Source of the DNA: Escherichia coli
GTDB lineage: Bacteria; Pseudomonadota; Gammaproteobacteria; Enterobacterales; Enterobacteriaceae
NCBI RefSeq assembly: GCF_024223415.1
Contig: NZ_CP100500.1
DNA: 64,000 nucleotides
Direction: 5' to 3' (one strand)
The notes below the pieces were generated by a model that saw nothing but the letters and a program-made list of their open reading frames with translations, did no database searches and was not told the DNA's origin. Below are positions 63,633-63,748 of this stretch, one piece after another (position 1 is the stretch's first letter; each line of letters starts with the position of its first letter). Position numbers and translations under genes: made by a program.

Positions 63633-63748
63633 GTTTTATTCTATTAACGGCAGGGAAGTCACGCAAGAGAAAGAGGTGGGTATGAGGGGGGGGGCATGTT
63701 TTCAGTTGGTTAACGCAATGTAATCAGGCATTTCCCCTGGCAGAGTGT

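Follow-up and report, generated by a model that had tools for sequence, protein, structure and literature searches.

Upstream of agn43 (flu), a gene under the Dam/OxyR phase-variation switch, an Escherichia coli genome carries a run of nine G residues, and the question that this locus raises is whether such a tract acts as a further switch of the gene, is a neutral hot spot of slippage, or is an error of sequencing. The DNA analysed, called the window throughout, is one stretch of 64,000 nucleotides. An earlier note on this DNA had placed the run in the intergenic region upstream of the flu regulatory region, which agrees with the sequence and with the neighbouring ORFs: direct reading of the + strand (GAGGTGGGTATGA GGGGGGGGG CATGTTTTCAG) gives exactly nine G residues at 63686-63694, with the stop codon of a yeeP-like GTPase gene (63749-63751, minus strand) on one side and the agn43/flu promoter on the other (Table 1). 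G9 with identical flanks was also read directly in an independent assembly (L001), and the spans of two more top matches are consistent with G9. At nine units the run exceeds the approximately 7-8 units from which slippage is expected.

How unusual a run of this length is depends on the measure. The tract is the sole G or C run of more than six bases within the window. G runs of length 4, 5 and 6 occur 112, 21 and 1 times, respectively, and no other length is seen until the nine; this decay is about five-fold per added base and extrapolates to an expectation of a few hundredths of a nine-base run per window, so that on run-length decay the tract is an outlier. In dinucleotide-preserving shuffles of the window, on the other hand, G8 matches occur at a mean of 1.64, and at least two, the observed number, were found in 46 of 100 shuffles. 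Since the shuffle counts match the observed one, the run is unremarkable as far as base composition alone is concerned, and any excess over chance hinges on the null model chosen. The actual sequence is nevertheless poor in long G/C runs. Apart from the tract, the window has a single homopolymer of nine, a T9 run at 33406-33414.

Table 1. Features at the tract, in the agn43 regulatory region and in the disrupted agn43 gene (window positions).
Feature	Position	Strand	Basis or remark
G9 tract	63686-63694	.	C9 on the agn43 coding strand
13-codon ORF MRGGACFQLVNAM containing the tract	63682-63723	+	mechanical ORF, ATG at 63682
yeeP-like GTPase-family gene, 3' part	63749-64000, runs off the window	-	ORF list and RefSeq annotation of matching loci
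C-rich, G-poor unstructured stretch, rut-like composition	63653-63730	-	about 20-100 nt past the GTPase stop
Putative agn43 -35 hexamer TTGCGT	63661-63666	-	by eye; aligns with K-12 TTGTCC
Putative agn43 -10 hexamer TAGAAT	63638-63643	-	hexamer unchanged relative to K-12
Three GATC sites, Dam/OxyR phase-variation switch	63597-63636	-	conserved across the alleles compared
agn43 leader, IS102/isrC RNA (RF00124)	63398-63634	-	cmscan 73.2 bits, E 9.6e-12
agn43/flu, first 98 codons	63086-63379	-	NCBIfam auto_Ag43, E 3.2e-61, profile positions 1-98
IS3-family element	61653-63085, ends approximate	+	NCBIfam transpos_IS3, 300 bits
IS3 orfA	61697-62227	+	
IS3 orfB	62332-63054	+	
IS66-family element	59203-61644	-	NCBIfam IS66 TnpA/TnpB/transposase matches
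IS66 tnpA	61573-61172	-	
IS66 tnpB	61175-60828	-	
IS66 tnpC	60778-59240	-	
agn43 remainder	56335-59202	-	97.9% identical to the intact allele (blastn against L001)

The position of the tract relative to the agn43 promoter was deduced by homology with K-12, because a consensus promoter scan of 63300-64000 on both strands yielded no promoter-like site. The putative -35 hexamer TTGCGT, which shares 3 of 6 bases with TTGACA and was missed by the scan, is located 17 nt from TAGAAT and is invariant across 7 alleles. In K-12, the 5' end of isrC is annotated 6 nt past TAGAAT, at the G of the first GATC. By this homology, agn43 transcription would start at approximately 63632 on the minus strand, again the G of the first GATC, which is reportedly the mapped agn43 start. 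Relative to this putative start the tract spans about -54 to -62, and it lies 19 nt upstream of the -35 hexamer. The locus has the three GATC sites of the agn43 switch, and the tract is located upstream of this region, where OxyR binds with a footprint reportedly extending from -16 to +42; the tract is thus not part of that switch. Further downstream, the IS102/isrC leader is closed by a terminator-like hairpin at 63411-63438 and is followed by the agn43/flu start codon at 63379 (minus strand). isrC is annotated at the corresponding place in K-12. The tract lies 52 nt upstream of the 5' end of the IS102 match and not inside the matched RNA, and an Rfam scan of 62000-64000 at E<=1 found no family besides IS102/isrC. 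The mechanism of agn43 phase variation by Dam and OxyR has been worked out in K-12 (PMC2909390; PMC13337833). From the GTPase stop to the -10 hexamer, K-12 has an unrelated sequence that lacks the tract, so an agn43 promoter can do without it. A second upstream promoter, TTGCGT-N19-TACAAA, suggested by eye in the ancestral alleles, was rejected as its spacing is too long and its match poor.

The gene that follows the tract is interrupted in the window. Homology to the intact agn43 of L001 ends at 63086 and resumes at 59202, from where it continues down to 56335 (blastn), which means that agn43 is split at codon 98 by a 3.9-kb IS66+IS3 insertion (window 59203-63085). An 8-bp direct repeat, GCCGGTAT, flanks the IS66 element (59195-59202 and 61645-61652). 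When the gene was re-joined and aligned by MAFFT to intact agn43, a second inactivating lesion emerged: CDS nt 1312-1313 are deleted (near 58183 in the window), and this loss of 2 bp divides the agn43 remainder into ORFs at 58130-59128 and 56377-58098. Judged from the insertion and the deletion in its sequence, agn43 is dead in the window, and inactivation of the gene would leave the tract without output in this genome. The IS/agn43 junction is present in none of 5,426 complete E. coli genomes, as none of them covers more than 65% of the junction query, and many tract-bearing genomes retain an intact agn43. A frameshifted agn43 pseudogene is annotated in 2015C-3163, O103:H2 FWSEC0007, 2011C-4315 and O103:H2 20151001; these four genomes have one common tract-bearing upstream haplotype, so that in another lineage, too, the gene downstream of the tract is dead. 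Directly downstream of agn43, on the minus strand, lies an 840-aa ORF (53740-56262) without a Pfam or NCBIfam match. It is part of a region of about 3.2 kb (53160-56334) between agn43 and a DUF905 gene that has no match in the 7.6-kb comparison locus of L001.

Comparison of the tract among related genomes, the check that the earlier note had called for, revealed that its length differs, from G8 to G13 with or without a following T. A 616-bp query from the agn43 start to the end of the window matched 4,509 of 5,426 complete E. coli genomes, the best of them at 99.2-99.8% identity over 615 to 620 bp. Direct reading of the tract in 12 E. coli genomes yielded G8, G9, G10, G13, G9T, G10T (twice), G11T (three times), G12T and G13T. 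The four genomes with G8, G9, G10 and G13 are identical in all other bases, and overall the lengths G8-G13 occur with an otherwise identical surrounding of 220-915 bp. All indels across 915 bp in the 12 genomes fall at the tract. One 6-SNP haplotype, shared by two O103:H2 strains and two genomes without a stated serotype, has G9T, G10T, G11T and G11T, that is, three lengths within one haplotype, from which it follows that the tract changes faster than the surrounding 915 bp gains substitutions. As the only indel polymorphism of this segment, and one that varies within a haplotype, the tract behaves as the earlier note had expected when it called such runs prone to slipped-strand mispairing. 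Nevertheless, eight of nine O103-type matches have one length by span, and two of these matches were read directly as G11T; clonal relatives thus tend to keep the same length, and this speaks against very high slippage rates. The best 60 matches to a 915-bp query, a ranking that favours lengths near that of the query, have spans of 914-920 bp with counts of 4/10/19/10/13/3/1. Long-tract alleles were also found in four gut-metagenome contigs (G8TGT, G9TAT in two of them, and G11).

The wider set of alleles shows from what kind of sequence the tract is derived. The 110 bp around the tract match in 2,661 genomes, with 185 records at an identity of at least 95%. On the coding strand, the site of C9 is occupied by ATACAAACACC in the more frequent alleles, among them those upstream of cah in O157:H7 and in O104:H4, and by C6 in FORC_031. 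A pattern scan anchored on the conserved flanks yielded 85 copies, from 84 metagenome stretches, mostly gut-labelled, and one genome contig. This contig, JAIJJM010000733.1 (1560 bp), belongs to a metagenome-assembled genome labelled Collinsella sp. and was the sole GTDB species-representative match to the pattern; it probably represents an E. coli fragment, either mis-binned or a contaminant. Following ATGA, and in + orientation, the majority alleles read GGTGTTTGTGT or GGTGTTTGTAT, and further alleles read GGGGGTTGTGT, GGGGGGTGTAT, GGGGGGGGTGT and G11. Slipped alleles from the pattern scan, G5+TGTAT and G9+TAT, read GGGGGTGTAT and GGGGGGGGGTAT. Together with G10T, which comes from the genomes, these alleles include a nested series of constant 11 nt, namely G2, G5+TTGTGT, G6+TGTAT, G8+TGT, G10T and G11, within which the T beside the 3' end of the growing G run gives way to G step by step, and length-changing variants arise mainly when the run is already long. 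The series is present on two flanking backgrounds, GGGTATGA and GGATATGA, which suggests recurrence or recombination. In an alignment of 63 haplotypes over 300 columns, in which parts of the flanks are fixed by the search pattern, the tract site and a few adjacent bases form the most variable stretch, and seven BLAST-found alleles agree with this. The stretch of approximately 55 nt that separates the tract from the GTPase stop (63695-63748) is almost invariant among alleles that differ by 7-16% over the 110 bp. In the ancestral alleles, the tract spacer varies by 1 nt (24 or 25 nt).

The pattern suggests that the tract is young and that GGTGTTTGTRT, which is not repetitive, was its precursor in a single family of agn43 upstream alleles. 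The G run would have grown at its 3' edge by one T-to-G change after another while the total was kept at 11 nt, possibly by transient-misalignment ("dislocation") mutagenesis at the run border. Past about eight G residues, replication slippage would add or remove G, resulting in heritable lengths of 8 to 13 that differ by lineage. If so, the allele series is an unusually clean record of the birth of a bacterial homopolymer by edge substitution and subsequent slippage.

It might also be that both the tract length in this record and its variation among public genomes are homopolymer miscalls. G/C homopolymers of nine or more are classic error sites, homopolymer errors have been documented for E. 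coli assemblies (PMC4134206), and a perfect match to the 616-bp query is missing from the collection. Moreover, the lengths were taken from finished assemblies of unstated technology, so that some differences of ±1 may be errors. However, the single mismatch to the 616-bp query is a substitution at 63788, outside the tract; the lengths cover 6 nt, far past ±1; the eight O103-type matches of one length come from different laboratories; two distinct series of alleles can be told apart, one with the trailing T and one lacking it; and long tracts recur in the metagenome contigs. An artefact is thus very unlikely. What the earlier note had said of a possible sequencing-error hot spot holds insofar as this record might be off by ±1, but it explains neither the tract nor the range of lengths. 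A change in length could, in addition, act on a reading frame. The tract is contained in a 13-codon ORF on the + strand, whose ATG is preceded at a distance of five bases by the Shine-Dalgarno-like motif GAGGT, and translations with run lengths of 5-15 showed that with G8, G11 or G14 this ORF joins a 258-codon frame antisense to the GTPase gene. It could therefore be proposed that the tract, in codons 2-5, switches a phase-variable overlapping gene for an antisense protein of about 262 aa, which would be ON at G8, G11 and G14 and OFF at G9, as here. In keeping with this, the antisense frame in L001 is open over 261-264 codons when 1+n is divisible by 3; the ATG of the non-repetitive alleles, where present, is in frame with the antisense ORF and in some of them is preceded by AGGAGG; and the sense gene has no TTA, CTA or TCA over the overlap (P ~0.01 given the gene's own A3 usage). 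On the other side, the frame in question is the codon-aligned antisense frame, which is the usual frame of shadow ORFs; to be open, it needs only a sense gene without TTA, CTA and TCA. No Pfam domain was found in the product, which has a high content of R, G, H, Q and C, and interruptions of the frame occur in 8 of 63 haplotypes that keep the GTPase frame intact. Among 46 haplotypes dN/dS is about 1.1 for the antisense frame versus about 0.23 for the GTPase frame. Among GTPase-synonymous changes, stop-gains (4 of 30 possible ones), antisense-nonsynonymous (63 of 462) and antisense-synonymous changes (6 of 49) occur at equal rates, two frameshifted haplotypes being excluded from these polymorphism counts. 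The scan of 63300-64000 contained no + strand promoter, the commonest allele has CTG where the ATG would be, and only about a quarter of the best 60 matches have an in-frame tract length. Neutral evolution, polymorphic stops, the lack of a domain and the odd composition identify the antisense ORF as a shadow ORF, the only ORF that the tract affects, and a phase-variable gene is extremely unlikely.

The best explanation, which we regard as probable, is that the tract is a recent, neutral, slippage-prone poly(G.C) run in an unconstrained spacer and has no regulatory function. By the promoter placement from homology, the run lies neither between -35 and -10 nor between an activator site and the promoter; being upstream of the -35 hexamer, it could change in length and leave the core promoter spacing, the OxyR/GATC switch and all selected frames as they are. 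The idea of a contingency switch, put forward in the earlier note, finds no support in a tract that lies outside the GATC/OxyR region, overlaps no selected ORF and precedes a broken gene. Two observations speak against neutrality, namely the near-invariance of the 55-nt block next to the GTPase stop, since tract length would alter the phase of this block relative to the promoter if it binds a factor, and the many tract-bearing genomes with intact agn43. An alternative view is that tract length tunes agn43 transcription like a rheostat, through the distance or helical phase between the core promoter and the conserved 55-nt block, or an alpha-CTD/UP-type contact around -40 to -60, which would put a slippage-based genetic layer on the Dam/OxyR epigenetic switch. 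The tract is located where upstream promoter contacts occur, the block upstream of it is almost invariant among alleles, and lengths from 8 to 13 would rotate the DNA upstream through roughly half a turn of the helix. In vitro, however, agn43 transcription reportedly needed no more than RNA polymerase and template, and the K-12 promoter works with an unrelated upstream sequence. The tract is G/C (C9 followed by TCATACCCACC on the coding strand), unlike the A/T-rich UP element with its A- and T-tracts; the ancestral spacer already varies between 24 and 25 nt; and the lengths in the best 60 matches do not cluster at particular values. A precedent exists in Streptococcus pyogenes, where indels in an intergenic homopolymer between Spy1336 and R28-Spy1337 change the transcription of the neighbouring genes (PMC7098570). 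The agn43 system has been described with a single OxyR repressor site and no activator (PMC2909390). Tuning by tract length is hence unlikely, and that G8-G13 slippage serves as a heritable rheostat on agn43 in the approximately 3% of E. coli genomes with the allele is decidedly improbable; if it did, the level of expression in the ON state, or the bias of the Dam/OxyR switch towards ON or OFF, would depend on the tract. The surroundings of the tract also allow for a role at the RNA level. Past the GTPase stop, the minus strand is C-rich and G-poor (63653-63730; C minus G of 22 in 60-78 nt, the top 0.02-0.06% of windows) without significant structure (RNA fold z-score +0.43), a composition over 60-80 nt like that of a rut region, and the scan of 63300-64000 found no intrinsic terminator after the stop. 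The tract might thus belong to a Rho-dependent terminator whose rut RNA would halt read-through from the GTPase gene, the full-length homologue of which matches Pfam MMR_HSR1, before it reaches the agn43 promoter and OxyR site. The C tract would then add C-richness, its exact length would be irrelevant and a homopolymer would not be required. The extreme C-over-G skew, the absence of RNA structure and of an intrinsic terminator, and the tolerance of length change, which fits a compositional signal, are in line with such a terminator, as is the value of 18 that C minus G still reaches with an ancestral-like sequence put at the tract site. Against it, the support is compositional, K-12 has a different sequence in this stretch, and a pure homopolymer instead of scattered C residues is left unexplained. 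We consider a Rho-dependent terminator quite unlikely, and it is compatible with the neutral explanation, as the tract would still be a neutral by-product. The strongest C-over-G skew of the window is found elsewhere, at 52285-52345 on the + strand (C minus G up to 30 in 78 nt), in an island region near a DUF932 gene.

Read as a neutral run, the tract is a finding of small consequence: accessory DNA has here another homopolymer prone to slippage, and the gene downstream of it is dead. For comparative work, a difference in length at this site between two E. coli assemblies is in most cases a real marker of lineage, and a difference of ±1 at a run of G9-G13 should not be over-read. If tract length modulated agn43 expression, of which this analysis gave no sign, this would be the first case of slippage feeding into a classic epigenetic switch. 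Elsewhere in the window, 38429-47205 holds the backbone genes ade, a xanthine/uracil-family permease gene, nepI, nlpA, an EamA-type transporter gene and a setB/setC-like sugar efflux gene, of which ade, nepI, nlpA and the setC-like gene presumably mark the selC neighbourhood on the K-12 map. An integration site at selC was considered and not retained, as there is no tRNA in 40000-64000 and no match to the selC sequence used as query.

In the literature searched, no paper links Ag43/agn43 to a homopolymeric tract, and a survey of homopolymers in Escherichia (PMC8928963) does not mention flu, Ag43 or the GTPase. We thus found no prior description of the tract in this literature, and as a kind of feature it is ordinary. 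The same locus is known for the Dam/OxyR switch (PMC2909390; PMC13337833), whose elements, the GATC sites, the -10 hexamer and isrC/IS102, lie 50-300 bp downstream of the tract; unlike them, the tract is absent from K-12, the strain that defines the switch. A variable G run adjoining the gene of a surface or sensory protein is also found in the tlpB leader of Helicobacter pylori, which is targeted by the RepG sRNA (Pernitzsch et al. 2014, via PMC8928963). That repeat is transcribed within the mRNA leader and pairs with the sRNA, whereas the tract described here is located upstream of the agn43 start. Among the promoter repeats of Neisseria, a poly-G in porA and a poly-C in opc lie between -35 and -10, and TAAA repeats lie upstream of the -35 of nadA. 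They share with the tract the simple-sequence repeat near the promoter of an outer-membrane protein gene and the length variation from strain to strain. In Neisseria, however, the repeats alter the -35/-10 spacing or the geometry of regulator and IHF binding, with measured effects, whereas in E. coli, where mismatch repair is intact, the tract lies outside the core promoter and its length is clonally mostly stable. In Bordetella pertussis, C-tracts in the fim2 and fim3 promoters are said to control fimbrial phase variation by slippage. These, too, are coding-strand poly-C runs upstream of surface-adhesin genes that vary in length between close strains, but their place is inside the promoter, with the BvgA activator sites on one side and the -10 element on the other, so that one base alters activation. 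Another parallel concerns the origin of the allele series. Microsatellites are reportedly born by substitution and lengthened by slippage thereafter, and dislocation mutagenesis is reported to act at the borders of runs. The tract resembles these cases in its series of constant length, followed by length variants once the run is long; it differs from them in that it is bacterial, intergenic and mononucleotide, and in that the mechanism proposed here is deduced from natural alleles.
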